This document shows, in pieces, positions 1-50,258 of a DNA stretch of 64,000 nt; position 1 is the stretch's first letter; each line of letters starts with the position of its first letter. A program made the translations under genes and the position numbers. This stretch comes from an uncultured Clostridiaceae bacterium. GTDB taxonomy: Bacteria > Bacillota > Clostridia > TANB77 > CAG-508. The notes under the pieces were generated by a model, which saw only the letters and a list, made by a program, of their open reading frames with translations, was not told where the DNA came from and made no database searches. The DNA lies in the NCBI GenBank assembly GCA_948356915.1, contig CAOJCG010000012.1, forward strand, positions 232 to 64,231, written 5' to 3'.

Positions 1-199
1 AGAAAAGAAAATGTTTGGACTTACATTAGAAGAAATTAGAAGACAAACTAAAAAGCCTTATGATGTTGATCCTCAGGCATTCATGAACCCAATGAATAAA
101 GATTTTGGTACCATTGATCCAGTTATCGAAGGTGCTAAAAAAATTAATGAAAGTCCAGAATTAAAGGAACTTGTAAAGGATATTTTGACTTCAAGATAA
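1..199 (+). CDS. 3' end of a hypothetical protein whose ORF is open from the window edge
   Basis: Frame is open from position 2. The 62-aa tail is followed by a terminator hairpin. Confidence 0.3.
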   Translation, partial: EKKMFGLTLEEIRRQTKKPYDVDPQAFMNPMNKDFGTIDPVIEGAKKINESPELKELVKDILTSR

Positions 200-204
200 A
201 ATAT

Positions 205-239
205 AAGAGACACTAAAATTGGTGTCTCTTATATTTTTA
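205..239 (+). terminator. Rho-independent terminator
   Basis: Stem aagagacac/gtgtctctt followed by a T-run. Confidence 0.6.
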
Positions 240-278
240 CTCCGTAAAGGAGGGTTGTTCAAATGTATTTGCAAATTT

Positions 279-8927: not shown

Positions 8928-9062
8928 AACAGAAGTCAGAAGGAAGAGAGTGGAAATTAAATAGTGTAGATGATTAGAAGACATTGTAGGGACGACTATT
9001 AGTCGTCCGCACTTCGAAGAAACTACCCAAAATCCGACATCCGACATCTGACCTCCGATATC
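8928..9062. repeat. Composite repeat with embedded REP hairpin (GTAGGGACGACTATTAGTCGTCC) and CTTCGAAGAAACTACCC core
   Basis: Purine arm agaagtcagaaggaagagagtgg. Pyrimidine arm atccgacatccgacatctgacctccgat. It lies in the rplJ leader. Confidence 0.7.
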
Positions 9063-16617: not shown

Positions 16618-17643
16618 ATGAAAGTATCAGAATTTAATTATAATTTACCAGAAGAATTAATAGCACAAGTACCAATAAAAAATAGAGATATGTCAAGACT
16701 AATGGTATTAGAAAGAAAAAATAAAACAATAGAAGACAAAATATTCAAAGATATATTAGACTACCTAAAACCGGGAGATTGCTTAGTAAGAAACAATACA
16801 AAAGTACTACCAGCACGTTTGTATGGAGTAAAAGAAGAAACAGGAGCAAATATAGAATTCTTACTATTAAAAAGAATAGAAGGAGATACTTGGGAAACAA
16901 TGGTACACCCAGGAAGAAGGCTAAAACCAGGAACTAAAGTAATATTTGGAGATGGCTTACTAAAAGCAGAAGTATTAGAAATATTAGAAGGTGGAAATAG
17001 AAAAGTACATTTTGAATATAAGGGAATATTTAATGAAATATTAGATCAAATAGGACTAATGCCACTACCACCATACATACATGAAAGTCTAAAAGAAAAA
17101 GACAGATACCAAACAGTATACGCAAAGCACGAAGGCTCAAGTGCAGCACCAACAGCAGGTCTGCACTTTACAGATGAACTACTAGAAAAAATAAAAGAAA
17201 AAGGTATAGAAATAGCAAATGTAACCTTACATGTAGGAATAGGAACCTTCAGACCAGTAAAAGTAGAAAATATAGAAGAACACGACATGCATAGTGAGCA
17301 CTACTACATAAAAAAAGAAGACGCCGAAAAAATAAACAAAACAAAGCAAAATGGAGGAAGAATAATAGCAGTAGGAACAACATCATGTAGAGTACTAGAA
17401 TCAATAGCAAACGAAAAAGGTTTAGTACAAGAAACAGAGGGAGACACAAACATATTCATATATCCAGGCTACAAATTTAAATGTATAGACGCACTAATAA
17501 CAAACTTCCACTTACCAGAATCAACACTAATAATGTTAGTATCCGCATTAGCAGGAAAAGAATACATAATGGAAGCATATAAACACGCAGTAAAAGAAAA
17601 ATACAAATTCTTCAGCTTCGGAGATGCAATGTTTATATATTAG
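16618..17643 (+). CDS. queA: S-adenosylmethionine:tRNA ribosyltransferase-isomerase
   Basis: 341-aa QueA followed by tgt. Confidence 0.9.
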
Positions 17644-17663
17644 TGCAAAAAGGGAGGAAATAA

Positions 17664-18789
<1,126 letters not shown>

Positions 18790-18811
18790 TAACACAAAAG
18801 AGGAGGATGTT

Positions 18812-20260
18812 ATGGAAATAATAGGAACTAACCAAGAAGAAAAACAAAAGAAAAGCAAAAAGTTAATGATAGTAATAACAATACTAATTATTATATTATT
18901 AATTATCAGTATAGGTTTATTTACTGCAATTTATTATTTAAAAGCACAACAATTTAAATTTGTGATAGATGGTAAATCAATATCAAGTAAATCTATGGCA
19001 AATGATTTATTTGTATATGAAAATGATAACATATATGTTTCATTAAGAGATATATCAGAATTAATAGATTATAAATATTATAATGGTGGATACAAACAAT
19101 ATACAGAAGATACAACCAAATGCTACTTAGAAGGCAAAAATGAAGTTGCTACTTTTGAAAAAGATTCAAATACTATATATAAAACAAAAGTAGGAGAATT
19201 AGACTATACTTATTTTACATTAGATGAACCAATAAAAAGAATAAATGGCAAGCTATACATTAGTTCAAAAGGGCTAAATACAGCATGTAACCTTCAAATG
19301 AGCTATGATAAAGAAGCAAATAGAATGACAATATATACTCTACCATATTTAACAAATTATTATATGACTAGATATTCAAATGCTTCTCTTGAAACAAACT
19401 TTAATAACCAAAAAGCCTTGTTATATGGTTTATTAGTAGTACAAAATGTAGATAACACAGATAAAAATACATCTAATGCTAATATAAGATATGGTATTCA
19501 TAATTTAAATAATGAAGAAATAGTTGGAACAAAATATACAAATATTGATTTCATAGAAGGAACAGAAGAATTTATTGTAACAACAGAAGAAAAAAAAGTT
19601 GGAATAATAACATCAGAAGGTGATACAAAAGTAAATCCACAATATGATGCATTAAAGCAAATTGATAAAAAATTAAATTTATATATGGCAACAACAAATG
19701 GTAAAAGTGGTATAATAGAGAAAAATGGAAAAATATTAATTTATTTAGAATATGAACAAATAGGAATAGATGCAAACCAATTCCCAACAAATGATATAAA
19801 GAATAAGTACATATTATTTGATAATGCAATACCAGTTAAACAAAATGGAATGTGGGGATTATTTGATATAAGAGGAAATCAAATATTACCACTAGAATAT
19901 GTAAGTTTAGGATGTATATCAAAAACAAGTTCTAATAGAAGTTTAAACAATATATTAGTAATACCAGATGTTGAAGGAATAGTAGTATGTCAAGAAATAG
20001 AAAGAGATTCTAGGAAAACAGAAATTTATGGAATAGTAAACTCAAGAGGAAAAGAATTAATACCAATGTGTTTAGAAACAGTATATTCTGTAACAGTATC
20101 AGGAAAAGATGAATATACAATGGTAAATAACGGCAACTCGATTGATGTAATAGAATATGTAAAATTAACAAGAGAATTTGAAGAAGAAAATAACAAAAAC
20201 ACTACTACAAATACAGTAACAAATGAGGTATCAAATACAATTCAAAATACGCAAAGTTAA
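18812..20260 (+). CDS. Membrane-anchored protein with WG-containing repeats
   Basis: ATG at 18812 follows RBS aggagg. One TM segment, then repeats of the KNGK..G.I..NG / MWGLFD type. Confidence 0.5.
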   Translation: MEIIGTNQEEKQKKSKKLMIVITILIIILLIISIGLFTAIYYLKAQQFKFVIDGKSISSKSMANDLFVYENDNIYVSLRDISELIDYKYYNGGYKQYTEDTTKCYLEGKNEVATFEKDSNTIYKTKVGELDYTYFTLDEPIKRINGKLYISSKGLNTACNLQMSYDKEANRMTIYTLPYLTNYYMTRYSNASLETNFNNQKALLYGLLVVQNVDNTDKNTSNANIRYGIHNLNNEEIVGTKYTNIDFIEGTEEFIVTTEEKKVGIITSEGDTKVNPQYDALKQIDKKLNLYMATTNGKSGIIEKNGKILIYLEYEQIGIDANQFPTNDIKNKYILFDNAIPVKQNGMWGLFDIRGNQILPLEYVSLGCISKTSSNRSLNNILVIPDVEGIVVCQEIERDSRKTEIYGIVNSRGKELIPMCLETVYSVTVSGKDEYTMVNNGNSIDVIEYVKLTREFEEENNKNTTTNTVTNEVSNTIQNTQS

Positions 20261-20266
20261 AAAAAT

Positions 20267-20370
20267 GAAATGGGCTGTAAAAAAAGTATGCCAAAAGGCA
20301 CGAGAGAAATTGACACTCCTCGAGGAGTCAATTTCCTCCGTGCCTTTTGGCACACTTTTTTTACAGCCCA
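20267..20370. repeat. Long imperfect palindrome with GGGCTGTAAAAAAA / TTTTTTTACAGCCC flanks; likely bidirectional terminator
   Basis: tgccaaaaggcacgagagaaattgacactcctc / gaggagtcaatttcctccgtgccttttggca. Confidence 0.6.
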
Positions 20371-20472
20371 TTTCATTTTTTATGTACTATATATTTTTAA
20401 TTATAGCAAAGGAATATAATAAACGAACCCAAAATTATAATACTCATATAGTATAGTAGGAGGTTGCATGTT

Positions 20473-21117
20473 ATGAATCAAATAGAAAAAAAGACAATAA
20501 AAGGAGAGTTAAAGTATAAAAATACAGTAATACTTACATACAAAATAGAATATCCACAAATGATTTCTACTAAATATACATATGGGAAGGAAATATTTAA
20601 TAATTACAATAAAAAAAAGGCAATTGACTTAGAAAAATATATAAAAACAGATTTATATGAAAATGCCAAAGAAGTATATGAATATAATAAGGCAAATGGC
20701 TATCCTATTATGGTATTCGAAGTAATATCAGAATATCATATAACTTATAATGAAGGATTTATTGTAAGCTTATATCAAGATGAATACCAATTTACAGGAG
20801 GAGCACATGGAAGTACAATAAGAACTTCTCAAAACTGGAATTTAAAAGAGGCAAGTACTATACCACTAACATACTTTTTTCCTAATAACCCATATTATAC
20901 AATAGACATATTAAAAGAAATAAATAGTCAAATAAAAACGCAAATAGAAGAAGGGAAAAACCAATATTTTGAAAACTATTGTGAACTAGTATTAGAAACA
21001 TTTAATTTAAGCAACTATTATATAATGCCAAATCAAATAGCAATATATTTTCAACAATACGATATAGCACCATACTCAAGTGGAATACCAGTATTTTTAA
21101 TCAGGACCGCACACTAG
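20473..21117 (+). CDS. DUF3298/DUF4163 (RsiV-like) domain protein
   Basis: FTGGAHG motif. The last codons (IRTAH) and the stop lie inside a REP copy. Confidence 0.6.
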   Translation: MNQIEKKTIKGELKYKNTVILTYKIEYPQMISTKYTYGKEIFNNYNKKKAIDLEKYIKTDLYENAKEVYEYNKANGYPIMVFEVISEYHITYNEGFIVSLYQDEYQFTGGAHGSTIRTSQNWNLKEASTIPLTYFFPNNPYYTIDILKEINSQIKTQIEEGKNQYFENYCELVLETFNLSNYYIMPNQIAIYFQQYDIAPYSSGIPVFLIRTAH

Positions 21118-21166
21118 GGACGGTCCTTTTCGTTCCGAAATCGGAACGCTGGGGACACTCCTTAAG
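21103..21166 (+). repeat. REP copy (TAGGGACGGTCCTTTTCGTTCCGAAATCGGAACGCTGGGGACACTCCTTAAG)
   Basis: Same sequence as the REPs flanking the RAYT at 23444 and 24428. Confidence 0.8.
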
Positions 21167-21720: not shown

Positions 21721-21808
21721 ATAGATATAAGTATAACTAAAAAATATATTTACAGTTTGAAGCTAAAAAATATAGTATAGCAGAGATGTATTACTCTGCT
21801 ATATACAT

Positions 21809-22417
21809 TTACAAATTATCTTTTATTTCTGGAAATAAATCATATAAATCATATCCTAATAAATTATCAAAGTATGCTTTTAATTTATATGTTTCTTTTA
21901 TATGGTATTGTGTATTTTCATAAGCACCATGCCTTATCATAATATCAATTAATCGCTTATCTATTGTATAAACTTTTCCACCTTGAGGACACATTAAATC
22001 GCATAAATTTATTATTTTTTCTTCTATTGTATATTCATGATTTTTTATAAACTGTGTTAAAAATAGATTTTTATTAGGGTCTGGAATACCTCCTGCAACA
22101 CAAAGGATATCATTATTTAAAAATGAATGTGTTAAACAGATATTATAGAAATCTTCATCATATCCTTGCTCTTTCAAATATTCGTAACCTTTTATCTCAT
22201 GAATTTGAGGTTCAACACTATATTTACCAATATCATGAATGTAGCCTAGTACTATTGCTTTATCAACATCAACATTATAACCTTTTACAGTTAGAGCTTG
22301 AGCAATTTTTCCTGCTGTATCGCCAACACAAATACAATGGTCTATCCATCTATCACTTTGAGTTGTACCTCTAAAATTTTCTAATATAGTTCTTGCAGCA
22401 TTACTTGTTAATTTCAT
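21809..22417 (-). CDS. HD/HDIG-domain phosphohydrolase
   Basis: H..HD motif (YIHDIGK). 202 aa. Confidence 0.65.
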   Translation of the reverse strand: MKLTSNAARTILENFRGTTQSDRWIDHCICVGDTAGKIAQALTVKGYNVDVDKAIVLGYIHDIGKYSVEPQIHEIKGYEYLKEQGYDEDFYNICLTHSFLNNDILCVAGGIPDPNKNLFLTQFIKNHEYTIEEKIINLCDLMCPQGGKVYTIDKRLIDIMIRHGAYENTQYHIKETYKLKAYFDNLLGYDLYDLFPEIKDNL

Positions 22418-22742
22418 AATTTTCTCCTAACTTTTCAAATAAATATTTATTATATAAACTTTAACACTATTACTTATTATTTAATAATTCTTTATCATTA
22501 AAGACAAGCTTAATAATATATTATAAAAATTATTTATGCAATTGTATAAATCCATAGCATTTTGACGTTTCATATTAATTACATTTGCTATACTAAAAGA
22601 TATTATCATAAAAAACATCTATTTTCAACAAAATTTATCTATAAGTTTAAGAAATATATTATGTGAAAACTATGTGAAATTGGTAGAAAAGTGAATACAA
22701 ATATGATAATATAGAAAAATAATTATTAGAGAGGTATGGTAA

Positions 22743-23444
22743 ATGTCATATATAGAATTTAGAAATGTTAATAAAGAATATAAAATGGGAGAAGTAACAA
22801 TAAAGGCCTTAGACGATACAAGCTTTAGTATAGAAAAAGGAGAGCTAGTAGTTATAGTAGGTCCAAGTGGAGCAGGAAAAACCACAACACTAAACATATT
22901 AGGTGGAATGGACAGTGTAACATTAGGTGAAGTAATAGTAGATGGAAAACAAGTAAATAAATTAAACAACAAAGAGTTAATAAAATACAGAAGAGAAGAC
23001 ATAGGCTTCATATTCCAATTCTACAACTTAGTACAAAACCTAACAGCTCTAGAAAATGTAGAACTAGCAACTCAAATATGTAAAGACTCATTAGACCCAG
23101 AAACAATAATAGAAAAAGTAGGTTTAAAAGAAAGAAAAGGAAACTTCCCATCACAACTATCAGGAGGAGAGCAACAAAGAGTGGCAATAGCAAGAGCAAT
23201 AGCAAAAAATCCAAAGCTACTATTATGTGATGAACCAACAGGAGCACTAGACTACAAAACAGGAAAACAAATACTAAAACTTTTGCAAGATACATCAAGA
23301 AAAGAAAAAATGACAGTAATAATAATAACACACAACACAGCACTAGCGCCAATGGCCGACAAAGTAATACACTTCAAAAATGGAAAAGCAGAAAAAATAG
23401 AAACAAATGAAAAACCAACATCAATAGAAGAAATAGAATGGTAG
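22743..23444 (+). CDS. ABC transporter ATP-binding protein (MacB/FtsE-like)
   Basis: Walker [10 protein letters not shown], signature LSGGEQQR and Walker B LLLCDEPT. Confidence 0.9.
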
Positions 23445-24486
23445 CGTGTTAGGGACGCACGTTAGGGACGGTCCTTTTCGTTCCAAAATCGGAACGCTAG
23501 GGACACTCCTTAAACTAAATAATGGGGAATTATGGTTTATTGAGATTGGATTAAAAGATATAATAGGGGAAATTATATTTTAAACTAAAAACAAAAATTA
23601 AATAGGGGCTTAAAATAATAAAAGAAAGAAGGTAATATTATGCCCCGAATGGCAAGAAAAAGTTTAGAAAAAGGTTTTATGCATATAATGGCTCAAGGAA
23701 TAAAAAAAGAAAAAATATTCTACAAAGATGACTATAAAGAAAAATATATTAAATTAATAAAGTTTTTTAAAGAAAAGCAAAAAGTAGAAATTATTAATTA
23801 TTGTGTAATGAATAATCATGTTCACATTATTATATACACTGAAGATATAGATGAATTAACAATATTTATGAGAAAGTTAAATACAACATATGCTTTACAT
23901 TATAATAAATCAGAAAATAGAGTAGGCTATGTATTTAGAAATAGATTTGAAAGTAAAGAAATATATAATCAAGATTACCTAACAAAATGTATAAAATATG
24001 TACATATGAATCCAGTAAAAGCAGGAATTACGAAAACAGAAGGAGAATATAAATATTCAAGTTATAATGACTATATAAACAAAAAAGGAATTATAACAGA
24101 TGAATTATTACAAAAAATATTTAATTCAAAATATAATTATTTAAAGGAATTCTTAAAGATAGAATATGACGAAGAATTATTCGAAGAACTAGAAAAAGAA
24201 GAACTTACAAATGAAAAGCTAAAAGAACAAATAGAACAATTTATAAAAAAAGAACAAGTAACCTTAGGAGAATTAAAAAACGATAAAAGATTAATAAAAA
24301 AACTATATAATACAATGAAGTTAAAACCAACAAAAGCGAAATTAGGAGAATGTATAGGACTAAGTAGAACAAGAATAAGTAAGATATTAAATGATTATAA
24401 AGAAAATAAAAAATAAGGAGTAAGCAAAGGAGTGTCCCCAGCGTTCCGAATTCGGAACGAAAAGGACCGTCCCTAGCGTGCGGAAG
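23444..24486 (+). mobile_element. REPtron: REP, RAYT gene, inverted REP
   Basis: REP at 23444-23512 (+) and its reverse complement at 24428-24486 flank a Y1/HUH transposase. The unit sits between the ATPase and permease genes of one ABC transporter. Confidence 0.8.
23640..24416 (+). CDS. REP-associated tyrosine transposase (RAYT, IS200/IS605-like Y1 HUH)
   Basis: HUH motif NNHVHIIIY and catalytic Tyr region YVFRNRF...KYVHMNPVKAGI. 258 aa, intact. Confidence 0.8.
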   Translation: MPRMARKSLEKGFMHIMAQGIKKEKIFYKDDYKEKYIKLIKFFKEKQKVEIINYCVMNNHVHIIIYTEDIDELTIFMRKLNTTYALHYNKSENRVGYVFRNRFESKEIYNQDYLTKCIKYVHMNPVKAGITKTEGEYKYSSYNDYINKKGIITDELLQKIFNSKYNYLKEFLKIEYDEELFEELEKEELTNEKLKEQIEQFIKKEQVTLGELKNDKRLIKKLYNTMKLKPTKAKLGECIGLSRTRISKILNDYKENKK

Positions 24487-24492
24487 ACGAAA

Positions 24493-27400
24493 ATGAAAAA
24501 AGCGTTATTGAAAGATAGTTTAAAAGAAATTAGAAATACATATAAAAGGTTTACTTCCATTTTATTAATGGCTTTTTTAGGTGTGGGCTTTTTTGCGGGA
24601 ATGAGGGCTGCAAGCCCTGATATGATATCTACTATTGATAATTATTTTGACAGTCAAAATGTATATGATATACAAATTCTTTCTACTTTGGGTTTAACAA
24701 ATGATGATACCCAGGCTTTAGAACAGGTTGAAGGCGTAAAAAAAGCTTATGGAGAATATAGTGAGGATGTTCTAATTAATTATGAAGATACTGAAATTGT
24801 AACTAAAGTATTATCAATAGATGATATAAATAGGGTAGCACTAATAGAAGGAAGAATGCCTCAAAGTAAAAATGAGTGCTTAGTTGAAAAAGCATTTTGT
24901 AATAGAACAGGAAAGAAAATAGGAGATAGCCTTACTATTGAAGAAACAAATGACAGTATAATAAAAGAAAAAGAGGTTACTATTGTAGGAACAATGAATA
25001 GTCCACTATATGTTTCAAGACAAAGAGATACTTCAAAGTTAGGTTCTGGAATGGTAAGCCATAATATGTATTTACCAAAGGAAAGCTTTGATTCGGAAGT
25101 ATATACTGGTATATATGTTGAACTAGTAAATTCTAAGCAAATGGTAGCTAATTCACAAGAATATAACGATTATGTACAAGAAGTGACTACAAAAATAGAA
25201 GAAATAAAAGCACAAAGAGAAAATGCAAGATATGATGAAGTGAAAGCCACCGCACAAGAAAGGCTAGAAGAAGGAGAGACAAAATTACAAGAAGAAAAGG
25301 TTTCAGCTAATAATAAACTAAAAGAAGCAGAAAATGAAATTATAGAAGGAGAAAGAAAATTAAATACTGCTGAAATTACTTTAAATAATAAAAGTAAGGA
25401 AGCGGAGGAAAAATTTAAGTTAGCAGAAGAAAATATAAAAACAGCTAAGGTTAAAATAAAAGAAGAAGAGGAAAATTTTAAAGTTCAGGAGCAAAATGCT
25501 TTTGCACAAATAGAACTTTTAAATAAACAAAAACAAGAAATAGAAGTTAATTTACAAAGTATAAATACTAATATAGAAGAATTACAAAAAAACTTAAATA
25601 AAATAAATGAAAGTCTTAACAATAATAATTTAACACAAGAAGAAATAGCTAGCCTTCAAGCTCAAAAGGAAAATATAGTAAATACATTAACAAATGTAAA
25701 GGCACAAAAAATACAGTTGGAAGCTGGGCTAGTAAGTATAAATAATGGTTTAGAAGAAATACAAAACGGAATAAAAGAAGGAAAAGAAAAATTAAATTAC
25801 GCTAAAACTACATTAGAAAATAATGAAAAGGAACTAAACAAAACAAAACAGTTAACAACAAAACAATTAGAAAGTGCAAGACAAGAAATAAATACTTCAA
25901 AAAAGCAGTTACAAGAAGGAAGAAAAACTCTTGAAACAAATAAGGCAGAATATGAAGAAAAAATAAAAGAAGCAGAGAAAGAACTATCAGATGCAAAGCA
26001 AAAAATACAAGAAATAGAACATCCAACTTGGTATATATTAGGACGAGATTCAAACCCAGGTTATAGTGGATTTATGCAAGACACAAAAAGTATAGAAAAT
26101 TTAGGAAAAGTATTTCCAATAGTATTTTTTGTTATAGCAACACTTATTTCACTAACTTCTATGACTAGAATGGTAGAAGAGCAAAGAGTGCAAATAGGTA
26201 CAATGAAGGCATTAGGATATAACAAAGCACAAATTGCAAGCAAGTATTTATTATATTCAGGGCTAGCTTGCCTAATTGGTGGAAGTATAGGAATGATAAT
26301 AGGTTTTGAAACACTTCCAAGAATTATATGGATGATGTATAGCATGATGTATGTAATACCAAATTTTGTTGCAAGTTTTAATGTATATTTTGCTATATTA
26401 GGTCTAGGGTTAGCAAGTGTATGTATAATAGGTGCAAGTTTATACACTGTTTTAAAAATAGTAGGAGATACACCAGCCCAACTAATGAGGCCAAAAGCTC
26501 CAAAAGCAGGAAAGAAAATATTATTAGAAAGAATTCCTTTTATATGGAAACATTTAAGTTTTAGCAGAAAAGTAACAGTTCGTAATATTTTCAGATATAA
26601 AAAAAGAGTAATTATGACAATAGTTGGAATTGCAGGAAGTACAGCACTTATACTAACAGGTTTTGGAGTAAAAGACGCAATTTCAGATATTTTAATAAAA
26701 CAATATGAAAATGTGTATAACTACGATATGCAAATTAGTTTGAAAAGTGATTTAGAAGAAACAGGAATAGAGAATTTTGTTAAAACATTAGAAGAAAAAG
26801 AAGAGATTAATAAAATAGCAGAAGCCAATATGACATCTGGAACATTAGTAAATGGAGAAAATGAAGAAGATGTACAAATTATTATAGCAAAAGATGAAAA
26901 AATAAATGAATTAATACATTTATCAGATAGGAAAACAAAAAAGGAACTTAAGTTACAAGAAGGAAAAATAGCTATAACAGATAAAGTGGCAGAATTATTA
27001 GAAGTTAAAAAAGGTGATAGCATAATATTAAAAGATGCAGAAGGAAAAGAAAATAGTGTAATAATTTCAGATATTGTAGAAAATTATATTTATCACTATG
27101 TATATATGCCAAAAAATTTATATGAAGAACTATATGGAGAATATAATACAAATGTATTATTTGCACAAAATAATGTAGAAGATGAGCAAGAGGAAGAACT
27201 TGCAAGTAAGTTTTTAAAAGAACCAAATGTAAATGCAGTATCATTAAGTTCTAACATGGAAAATGTAATGGATGATATGATGAGAAACTTAAATTATGTT
27301 GTAATTATACTAATAGTATCAGCAGGTATGCTAGCATTTGTAGTACTATATAATTTAGCAAATATAAATATTAGTGAAAGAATAAGGGAACTTGCTAGTT

Positions 27401-27690
27401 TAAAAGTACTAGGTTTTTACGATAAAGAAGTTTATGACTATGTAACAAGAGAAACAGCAATATTAACTGCAATAGGAATAATATTTGGACTAATAGGAGG
27501 ATATTTCTTAAGCATATTTATAGTAAAAACATGTGAAATAAATGTTTTAAGGTTTGGTCAAGAAATAAAGCTGCCAAGTTATATATATTCAGTAGCAATA
27601 ACGGTAATATTTACAGTAATAGTAAATATAGTAACATATTTTGCTTTGAAGAAAATTGATATGATTGAGAGTTTGAAAAGTATAGAATAG
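24493..27690 (+). CDS. ABC transporter permease, FtsX/MacB family, with a large coiled-coil extracytoplasmic domain
   Basis: N-terminal TM, about 450 aa of coiled coil, then two FtsX-like 4-TM blocks. ATG at 24493; the track start at 24478 lies inside the REP. Confidence 0.75.
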   Translation: MKKALLKDSLKEIRNTYKRFTSILLMAFLGVGFFAGMRAASPDMISTIDNYFDSQNVYDIQILSTLGLTNDDTQALEQVEGVKKAYGEYSEDVLINYEDTEIVTKVLSIDDINRVALIEGRMPQSKNECLVEKAFCNRTGKKIGDSLTIEETNDSIIKEKEVTIVGTMNSPLYVSRQRDTSKLGSGMVSHNMYLPKESFDSEVYTGIYVELVNSKQMVANSQEYNDYVQEVTTKIEEIKAQRENARYDEVKATAQERLEEGETKLQEEKVSANNKLKEAENEIIEGERKLNTAEITLNNKSKEAEEKFKLAEENIKTAKVKIKEEEENFKVQEQNAFAQIELLNKQKQEIEVNLQSINTNIEELQKNLNKINESLNNNNLTQEEIASLQAQKENIVNTLTNVKAQKIQLEAGLVSINNGLEEIQNGIKEGKEKLNYAKTTLENNEKELNKTKQLTTKQLESARQEINTSKKQLQEGRKTLETNKAEYEEKIKEAEKELSDAKQKIQEIEHPTWYILGRDSNPGYSGFMQDTKSIENLGKVFPIVFFVIATLISLTSMTRMVEEQRVQIGTMKALGYNKAQIASKYLLYSGLACLIGGSIGMIIGFETLPRIIWMMYSMMYVIPNFVASFNVYFAILGLGLASVCIIGASLYTVLKIVGDTPAQLMRPKAPKAGKKILLERIPFIWKHLSFSRKVTVRNIFRYKKRVIMTIVGIAGSTALILTGFGVKDAISDILIKQYENVYNYDMQISLKSDLEETGIENFVKTLEEKEEINKIAEANMTSGTLVNGENEEDVQIIIAKDEKINELIHLSDRKTKKELKLQEGKIAITDKVAELLEVKKGDSIILKDAEGKENSVIISDIVENYIYHYVYMPKNLYEELYGEYNTNVLFAQNNVEDEQEEELASKFLKEPNVNAVSLSSNMENVMDDMMRNLNYVVIILIVSAGMLAFVVLYNLANINISERIRELASLKVLGFYDKEVYDYVTRETAILTAIGIIFGLIGGYFLSIFIVKTCEINVLRFGQEIKLPSYIYSVAITVIFTVIVNIVTYFALKKIDMIESLKSIE

Positions 27691-27697
27691 AATGGTA

Positions 27698-27741
27698 AAA
27701 AGCAAGCAAAGATAGAAGCACTATCCTTGCTTGTTTTTTAG
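27698..27741 (+). terminator. Rho-independent terminator
   Basis: aagcaagcaaagatag / ctatccttgcttg plus a T-run. Confidence 0.55.
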
Positions 27742-49669: not shown

Positions 49670-49840
49670 ATGAAAAAGGAAAATGGAATGGCTCATATAA
49701 CACTTATTATTTGGATAGTAATTATAATTGTTATAGGATATTTAGGTATAAATTTTGTATTAAAAGAAACACGGAAAAGGAAAAATAGAAAACTTAAAAA
49801 CAGATATGTTACTAGTTCAAGGAAAAATAAAAGTAATTGA
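49670..49840 (+). CDS. Small membrane protein candidate
   Basis: 56 aa with one TM segment and a weak RBS. Confidence 0.3.
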   Translation: MKKENGMAHITLIIWIVIIIVIGYLGINFVLKETRKRKNRKLKNRYVTSSRKNKSN

Positions 49841-50144
49841 ACAAGAAAATGAAATGAATAAAGAAGAAAACCCATTAAGAGGTTTAAAGGTCTCAGAAAA
49901 TTTAGAAGATGAAAAGGTAAAAAAATTAATAGAAAATAAAGTAATAAATGCAGAAGATGAAAATTTTGACCAATATTATATAATAAATTCAGAAACCTTA
50001 AATGAACTAAATTTACAAGATAACTTAAAAGGTGAGTATTATATAGTAAATTATAAAACTTATGAAATAATTTACTCAAAGGGAATTGAAATAGAAGAAC
50101 AGATGCATTATAGCTTGACTGAAATTCTAGAACATACACGTTAG
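49806..50144 (+). CDS. Hypothetical acidic protein
   Basis: 112-aa ORF whose 3' end runs into a degenerate REP fragment (acgttagggacg). Confidence 0.3.
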   Translation: MLLVQGKIKVIEQENEMNKEENPLRGLKVSENLEDEKVKKLIENKVINAEDENFDQYYIINSETLNELNLQDNLKGEYYIVNYKTYEIIYSKGIEIEEQMHYSLTEILEHTR

Positions 50145-50258
50145 GGACGCTCATTTTTGTGTTAATTTAACATGGTAGGGACAACCTTTAAGATAAAAAA
50201 TATATACATAGTATTTTTTTATGGTAAAATAAGTTATAAAAGTGGAGAAAGTATTAAA

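Follow-up and report, generated by a model that had tools for sequence, protein, structure and literature searches.

Repetitive extragenic palindromic (REP) sequences and the REP-associated tyrosine transposases (RAYTs) that accompany them have been worked out almost wholly in Proteobacteria, and the largest RAYT group is the subclass that bears a helix-turn-helix (HTH) domain, Bertels' Group 1. A unit with the features of this subclass is found in an uncultured Clostridiaceae bacterium (assembly GCA_948356915.1, contig CAOJCG010000012.1), within a 64,000-nt stretch of DNA that is here called the window. A gene for a Y1 HUH nuclease, bracketed by inverted 55-nt repeats, stands between the ATPase and permease genes of an ABC transporter. 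The unit is likely to be a chromosomal, vertically inherited REPtron or TIRtron (the latter named for terminal inverted repeats, TIRs), in which a Y1 nuclease gene of the HTH subclass is flanked by inverted copies of its cognate hairpin repeat. By itself the locus shows neither an active element nor a new class; what it adds is a poorly sampled clade to the range of a known system, and nothing is overturned.

The class 2 Tyr signature, Y---NP, and the accompanying serine motif were defined by Quentin (2018, PMC6006769), who also set up subclass 2.1 of TnpA_Y1 for long, RAYT-like proteins that carry an HTH domain at the C terminus and equated it with the "TIRYT" proteins of Di Nocera. The units that contain TIRYT genes, "TIRtrons", end in inverted repeats that have the sequence GGGGWSAS in common (Di Nocera 2013, PMC3733652; PMC6006769). 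Nearly all RAYT Group 1 sequences (291 of 292) map onto subclass 2.1, next to whose genes REP-like hairpins are reported to be absent (PMC6006769). HUH/Tyr action on single-stranded, folded repeats has been shown for E. coli TnpA_REP (PMC3333891, PMC3479197). The original prediction for this locus presented such systems as poorly described in low-GC Firmicutes, which overstates their rarity: Group 1 RAYTs are already recorded in Clostridia, with flanking 16-mers at ~12 copies per replicon (Bertels 2017, PMC5581495), and the family of the window protein comprises 7,990 clusters at 50% identity at E<=1e-10 (22,765 at E<=1e-3 and 206 at E<=1e-30). The literature searched yielded no study devoted to clostridial RAYT/REP systems.

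The product of the window gene matches the Pfam Y1_Tnp model (PF01797) over its full length at 39.4 bits, against a cut-off of 23. In a fold search with a predicted (AlphaFold2, AF2) model, the structure of TnpA_REP with a REP hairpin (4er8) ranks first, followed by IS608 and ISDra2 TnpA; by sequence only, the match to 4ER8 and E. coli TnpA_REP has 17% identity and a phmmer E value of 0.16. The motifs singled out at the start, NNHVHIIIY and YVFRNRF...YVHMNPV, hold up well, their core residues (H60 and H62 of NNHVH; Y120, N124 and P125 of YVHMNP) being invariant in 28 homologues. Residues S140 and S141 of the serine motif are likewise invariant in alignments of 17 and of 28 homologues, and the Tyr motif, Y120-V-H-M-N124-P125, has the class 2 signature. 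All 28 homologues match the NCBIfam RAYT equivalog NF047646 (REP_Tyr_transpos), to which the window protein aligns over model positions 4–146 of 146. Toward its C terminus the predicted model is helical over residues 191–251, and weak HTH matches recur among the 28 homologues (HTH_Crp_2 in 13, HTH_7 in 12, HTH_3 in 12, HTH_23 in 6 and HTH_28 in 3, with HTH_8 also among them); the 25 families that these proteins match best do not include Bac_DnaA_C.

The arrangement of the flanks agrees with the prediction of a Y1/HUH gene between opposite copies of an REP of ~55 nt. The inverted arms (23456–23511 and 24427–24482) span 56 nt and are 93% complementary, and sharp conservation edges in an alignment of 110 distinct copies, taken both from the window and from its relatives, set the unit length at ~55 nt. 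The consensus of these copies reads cGcACGc TAGGGACGGTCCTT TT CGTTCCGAAtTCGGAACG ctgGGGACACTCCTT, and the left copy itself is composed of GCACGT-TAGGGACGGTCCTT-TT-CGTTCCAAAATCGGAACG-C-TAGGGACACTCCTT. Two direct GGGAC boxes, each near-palindromic (AGGGAC.GTCCT), surround a central hairpin. The repeat as a whole is predicted to form one long imperfect hairpin, whose central stem measures 6 bp in the left copy and 7 bp in both the right copy and a solo copy elsewhere in the window. For the left repeat, a three-tier DNA hairpin of -12.7 kcal/mol is predicted (z -2.1). The conserved 22-mer core, TAGGGACGGTCCTTTTCGTTCC, occurs three times in the window, with 0.00 occurrences expected. The solo copy had been anticipated at 21103–21166 and is indeed a full third copy, with its coordinates corrected in Table 1; it is kept at the orthologous place in two of the related loci fetched for comparison (L numbers throughout), L021 and L088. 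A further copy, proposed as degenerate at 50136–50185, is better read as another repeat class, since it shares the layout of two boxes plus a hairpin but has a different hairpin. The first TAG of this element ends the open reading frame (ORF) at 49806–50144, its fold is not better than those of shuffled sequences (z -0.65), and no exact copy of its class was found among the fetched related loci.

The ATPase gene ends in TGG TAG, and directly 3' of this stop lies a 12-nt imperfect duplicate of the beginning of the left repeat. The first REP had been said to begin at the ATPase stop codon; what adjoins the stop is this repeat-like segment, and the full unit begins at 23457. The duplicate is missing in the closest relatives, L029 and L035, in which the TAG stop of the ATPase gene abuts the repeat and its G serves as repeat base 1. 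At the other end, the outer end of the right repeat lies 11 nt upstream of the permease ATG, rather than the 7 nt first given. Within the unit, the nuclease-gene leader contains a box, AAATAGGGGC (within 23600–23612), 36 nt upstream of the nuclease ATG. The box is kept in the 91%, 79% and 66% identical orthologues and in a 47% identical paralogue, at an equivalent position in L029, L001, L133, L007, L011, L021, L035 and L088, with one or two more T(A/G)GGGG boxes upstream of it in these loci, and it is missing in the 45% identical relative L015. The leader box also resembles the GTAGGGGC tag of other REP classes.

Judged by its features, the nuclease fits the HTH-bearing TnpA_Y1 subclass 2.1 (particularly 2.1.2), that is, RAYT Group 1 or TIRYT. 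The locus combines the Y1 HUH fold, a single catalytic Tyr and the Y---NP signature of class 2 RAYTs with inverted, dispersed flanking repeats, low copy number, no near-identical duplicates and vertical inheritance, as seen from synteny in five lineages. Like the TIRYT systems, it has a long Y1 protein with Y---NP, a serine motif, a C-terminal HTH domain and no WQ.RFWEH, together with a low-copy gene, a moderately abundant dispersed repeat family and inverted flanks carrying GGGGACAC, which fits GGGGWSAS. Both the right and the solo repeat contain this sequence; the left repeat has AGGGACAC. The locus differs from described TIRtrons in that its NTAG-tagged terminal repeat of 55 nt is an imperfect hairpin, REP-like in appearance and accompanied by palindromic variants, and in that its protein gives generic short HTH matches instead of a Bac_DnaA_C match. 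An REP-like hairpin beside a 2.1-type gene is a difference in description, not an exclusion criterion. Assignment to the canonical GTAG-REP RAYTs (subclasses 2.2, 2.4, 2.5 and 2.7) was rejected, as the tag here is NTAG with a variable first base and VFRNRFES takes the place of WQ.RFWEH. The label "intact REPtron" is therefore apt for an intact RAYT-type gene with inverted dispersed repeats, but the gene belongs with the HTH subclass and not with the canonical GTAG-REP RAYTs.

The E. coli REPtron (Nunvar 2010; PMC3333891; 4ER8, PMC3479197) encodes a TnpA_REP only distantly similar in sequence to the window protein, which has an extra HTH domain of ~100 residues. The tag here is NTAGGGAC rather than the strict GTAG of the E. 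coli REP, and the repeat is longer, with its two direct GGGAC boxes and central hairpin. REPINs (REP doublets forming hairpins; Bertels and Rainey 2011, PMC3116915) find a likeness in perfect 62-nt palindromes of related metagenome-assembled genomes (MAGs) and in inverted doublets of another, GTAG-tagged class within the window (4145/4339 and 53172/53320), but the commonest form of the present repeat is an asymmetric 55-nt singlet, not a doublet. REPINs have been described for RAYT Groups 2 and 3.

The repeat belongs to a dispersed family. A one-genome-per-species scan for TAGGGACGNNCNTTNNCGTTCC yielded more than 113 stretches, a lower bound, nearly all of them from MAGs of gut Clostridia. Matches outside Clostridia are single and lack the hairpin, and for this reason are taken as chance matches. 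All multi-copy genomes among the matches listed are MAGs of gut or rumen Clostridia, for which the minimum copy numbers are 17 (CATNCV01), 15 (CANPTO01), 10 (USFC01) and 9 (JAAVYV01). The first of these is the closest MAG, 96% identical to the window over 6.4 kb. Copies in related genomes thus bear out the expectation that the flanking repeat would recur beyond the unit. Inverted repeats flank the nuclease gene in every relative examined, from 91% to 45% identity, and their sequences vary between lineages. The window clade, with nucleases at least 88% identical, has repeats of the type GCACG...GGAACG; the 79% clade has GAACA...GGAACA, the 66% clade of rabbit-gut MAGs has GCCCC...CCATTTTGG...ACCCC, and the 45% relative has a different hairpin that displays GGGACAGTCC in its loop. 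In a rumen Clostridiales MAG of 59% GC, RUG12331, GGAACGATAGGGACGGTCCTTTTCGTTCC with the 22-mer core is present in many copies, some of them in tandem arrays (L032, L034, L047, L073, L115, L121 and L126). From these alignments, the repeat variants follow the nuclease lineages. The TAGGGACG core has thus been retained in genomes that differ widely, up to 59% GC.

Taken together, the predicted fold, the catalytic residues, the bracketing by a cognate repeat and the co-variation of repeat and protein support a reading in which the nuclease acts on the repeats in trans by HUH/Tyr chemistry. The family also includes perfect 62-nt palindromes made from two outer arms (GCACGTTAGGGACGGTCCTTTTCGTTCCGAAATCGGAACGAAAAGGACCGTCCCTAACGTGC; L054, L072, L087, L098, L102, L112 and L125), which could be doublet forms or footprints of a deleted interior between two inverted repeats. 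Two further arrangements were seen among the related loci. In L040 (5450–6030, from USFC01), the orthologous unit has two same-orientation repeats ~520 nt apart on its left, which amounts to an insertion when compared with L007; in L089, a nuclease gene of 34% identity adjoins a similar repeat unit.

The history of the insertion can be traced through the same operon in other genomes. The order ATPase–nuclease–permease is shared by the window, L029 (CATNCV01), L035 (CANPTO01), L133 (CATLDI01) and L001, while outgroup relatives with permeases 59–69% identical have the operon without the nuclease gene. Given the 17-nt ATPase–permease spacer of one outgroup, L137, and a filled site shared by five lineages, the unit is an insertion into the ABC operon that is derived but old, as judged from the aligned loci. 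The nuclease gene has a dN/dS of 0.10–0.14 in comparisons with the more distant orthologues, and its dS of 0.18–0.43 is comparable to that of the adjacent ATPase gene (0.24–0.28), values that indicate purifying selection in accord with an old insertion. The description of the unit as "apparently active" consequently finds no support, in view of a site shared with at least four other lineages, a dS like that of the neighbouring genes and orthologous repeats that, wherever they could be compared, are in place. Among the fetched loci, the solo repeat is present in every orthologous pair, a comparison biased by the fact that loci were fetched by repeat presence. No near-identical nuclease copies were found in relatives, and the window has one copy of the gene.

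A different history would apply if the unit were an autonomous insertion sequence (IS), either a relative of IS200/IS605 or an element bounded by TIRs, which transposes as a whole and landed in the operon recently. Several observations speak for this reading. The 79% identical nuclease orthologues share a site between an ABC-F gene and tex, at which the 66% orthologue is also found in the MAG that contributed L136 (GCA_947581805.1); the ABC-F–tex locus was searched for in the window and not found. A second, paralogous unit lies between queA and tgt in L021 (2690–3625) and L035 (~830–1800), where it encodes a 252-aa protein of 47% identity and has its own inverted repeats, TAAAAGGGACGACCC...CTAAAGGGGACACCC, that carry GGGGACAC. 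The paralogous unit is also probable in L088 and L103, as judged by protein and flank matches only. It is present or absent between genomes that are 93–96% identical, and the window has an empty spacer at this place. With several relatives holding the unit, the sequences are more simply explained by its loss on the line leading to the window; the junction in the window is strongly diverged, and break points are not definable.

The ATPase–permease spacer itself has a similar record. In L136 (1820–2000) it measures 181 nt and contains an inverted repeat pair without a gene, GATACATTAGGGACGTTTC...GAAACGTCCCTAATGTATC, another TAGGGACG-type repeat, and in L134 (2953–3000) a 48-nt spacer resembles a decayed repeat arm. 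From this gene-less pair and this remnant, it looks as though such elements have repeatedly landed or decayed in the spacer. The alternative site, the presence and absence at queA–tgt and the L136 and L134 spacers together indicate that, in the course of evolution, either the whole unit or its ends changed place or disappeared. An autonomous, recently arrived IS is nonetheless unlikely. The ends of the unit are inverted copies of one repeat, whereas in IS200/IS605 chemistry (IS608, ISDra2) one strand has to carry a left and a right hairpin that differ from each other. The Tyr motif is of class 2 and not of the IS200 type, there is no tnpB gene, and multi-copy identical elements are lacking. 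The site is common to five lineages, with a dS like that of the flanks and a dN/dS of ~0.1. The gene is also nearly missing from mobile replicons: a plasmid search gave 18 distant matches in 72,556 plasmids, a search of phage records gave one distant match, and the repeat was found on one of 2.9 million viral contigs.

The positions of the repeats relative to genes follow a pattern. Placement was scored with a simple ORF call on all loci, by which 72 copies could be scored. The copies lie outside genes, and the median distance to a gene boundary is 11 nt for the outer (GCACG) end, compared with 100 nt for the inner end. The outer (5') side is closer to the gene in 57 copies and farther in 15 (nominal sign-test p = 6.5e-7, indicative only, as the copies are phylogenetically non-independent). 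In 13 copies the upstream gene takes its stop codon from the TAG of TAGGGAC, and in 7 further copies repeat base 1 is the last base of the stop, a G, which gives 20 copies with the TAG supplied or abutting. In the remaining copies the outer end lies 7–27 nt upstream of a start codon, beside the ribosome-binding site. Orientation relative to transcription is about even, at 32 versus 28.

Such precise placement at stop codons and ribosome-binding sites, in co-directional gene pairs and in both orientations, is also what one might see if the repeats were primarily RNA or DNA structural elements of the host (stabilisers of mRNA 3' ends, spacers for translational coupling or protein-binding sites, for instance), with the Y1 protein kept for another host function and the flanks serving as its operator sites. 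The retention of repeats at orthologous sites, the conserved AAATAGGGGC leader box and the HTH domain of the protein are all in keeping with this proposal. On the other hand, no T-tract terminators were detected in the repeats, and repeat variants that track the nuclease lineage are most simply explained by nuclease-dependent spread. As a primary explanation, a host-element role has a low probability; it is compatible with the REPtron/TIRtron interpretation, and the two are not mutually exclusive. That the locus is a fortuitous pairing of a decaying Y1 pseudogene with two unrelated repeats has only the sub-threshold NCBIfam score in its favour and is extremely improbable; it was rejected on the grounds of a full-length ORF, invariant catalytic residues, purifying selection and a flanking arrangement that recurs in all relatives examined.

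Against the interpretation of the unit as a REPtron/TIRtron with cognate repeats stand several observations. Against the RAYT equivalog NF047646 the protein scores 71.8 bits, below the curated cut-off of 80. The GTAG-reading residues of E. coli TnpA_REP are replaced, as noted above, and to our knowledge there is no biochemical evidence for the HTH-bearing RAYT subclass. The hairpins of the flanking copies are only ~2 standard deviations better than shuffles. In a test for stem covariation, variation was lineage-bound, with the two direct boxes shifting in parallel more than the stems change in a compensatory manner. The copy counts are lower bounds from fragmented related MAGs, and the window's own genome is seen over 64 kb, with its three copies. 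Finally, no polymorphic solo repeat, which would speak for mobilisation, was found in loci that were selected by their repeats.

The comparisons of loci support a history in which the unit entered the short spacer of a MacB-like exporter operon in an ancestor of a gut Clostridia clade of ~28% GC and has remained there. A mechanism can be proposed from the characterised enzymes E. coli TnpA_REP and IS608 TnpA. Like them, the protein probably binds its repeat in folded form while the DNA is transiently single-stranded, and the HUH-bound metal and Tyr120 would then cut and rejoin DNA at the repeat borders, allowing the repeat family to be spread and maintained in trans over evolutionary time. The HTH domain probably reads TAGGGAC/TGGGGAC boxes as duplex DNA and possibly the leader box ATAGGGGC too. 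Duplex reading of this kind might serve targeting or autoregulation, with TAGGGACGGTCC, TGGGGACACTCC and AAATAGGGGC as candidate boxes.

More tentatively, and with the balance of probability somewhat against it, the HTH-bearing RAYT subclass in low-GC gut Clostridia may service a genuine REP superfamily tagged by TAGGGAC. This superfamily would include the 55-nt two-box hairpins, the perfect palindromic doublets and possibly the GTAGGGGC hairpins, with an outer end positioned almost to the nucleotide at stop codons and ribosome-binding sites. If this is true, REPtrons and TIRtrons would be joined in one mechanism, for which a tractable Gram-positive model would become available. The locus and its relatives form a comparative series of empty spacer, gene-less repeat pair, repeat remnant and full unit, and they offer a well-defined candidate substrate of 55 nt. 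The rule of placement at gene boundaries could affect operon expression in abundant, uncultured gut Clostridia.

The operon that received the unit was identified as such in the original prediction, and gene calls and Pfam matches agree with it. The ATPase has NCBIfam matches of LolD, FtsE and MacB type, each below its own equivalog cut-off. The permease has two FtsX domains with a long coiled-coil insert, and its start at the ATG at 24493 is backed by the starts of its orthologues. The nuclease gene is on the same strand as both, and scans of the repeats for terminators and against Rfam gave no T-tract terminator and no Rfam family. Because the unit is co-oriented and no terminator is detectable, the nuclease gene is probably co-transcribed with the ABC operon. 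The coordinates of these and other features are collected in Table 1.

Table 1. Features of the nuclease unit, its operon and other repeats in the window (positions in nt unless residues are indicated).
Feature	Position	Strand	Basis or remark
ABC transporter ATP-binding subunit (MacB/LolD-like), upstream operon gene	22743-23444	+	PF00005, E 1.5e-35
Imperfect tandem duplicate of first 13 nt of left repeat (CGTGTTAGGGAC + shared G)	23445-23456	+	Read from sequence
Left 55-nt REP/TIR	23457-23511	+	Outer (GCACG) end faces ATPase
Nuclease-gene leader with three further T(A/G)GGGG boxes (23523, 23564, 23603)	23512-23639	+	Sequence
RAYT-type Y1 HUH nuclease gene, 258 aa	23640-24416	+	PF01797
N-terminal TnpA_REP-like domain of nuclease	residues ~1-150		
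C-terminal helical HTH domain of nuclease	residues ~190-255		
Right 55-nt REP/TIR, inverted	24427-24481	-	Carries GGGGACAC, fits GGGGWSAS
FtsX-family ABC permease, downstream operon gene	24493-27690	+	PF02687, E 1.8e-27, two stretches
Solo copy of 55-nt repeat	21109-21163	+	TAG of the repeat ends ORF 20464-21117
Empty queA–tgt spacer, ~28 nt	17637-17664		Comparison with relatives
REP-like element of another class	50136-50190	+	TAGGGACG box, AT-rich hairpin, GTAGGGAC box
Classical GTAG-tagged REP hairpins, several other classes	4145(+)/4339(-), 8986, 9705, 27816, 36543, 53172(+)/53320(-), 57630		

The window holds other repeats as well. GTAGGGRC occurs 10 times, with 0.42 occurrences expected, and several classes of classical GTAG-tagged REP hairpins are present, exemplified by GTAG-GGGCGATT-AGC-AATCGCCC with an 8-bp stem and a 3-nt loop. 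Two of their sites (4145/4339 and 53172/53320) are inverted doublets of ~160–200 nt that resemble miniature inverted-repeat transposable elements (MITEs) or REPINs. GTAG classes recur in the related MAG loci, and none of them flanks the nuclease gene; an exact search for the class at 8986 in the fetched related loci gave no match. No tRNA genes were found in the 64-kb window.

Upstream of the operon, a stretch of ~890 nt (21731–22624) is missing in L029 and L035. It includes a minus-strand ORF of 202 aa (21809–22417) in which an HD-type motif is discernible by eye, and in L035 a GTAG-class repeat stands in its place. Long palindromes lie at 20283–20358, downstream of the ORF at 18752–20260, and at 27696–27740, downstream of the permease gene. 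Their only Rfam matches, with a model of a microRNA hairpin, are below threshold, and terminator-like hairpins of the usual kind are the probable explanation.

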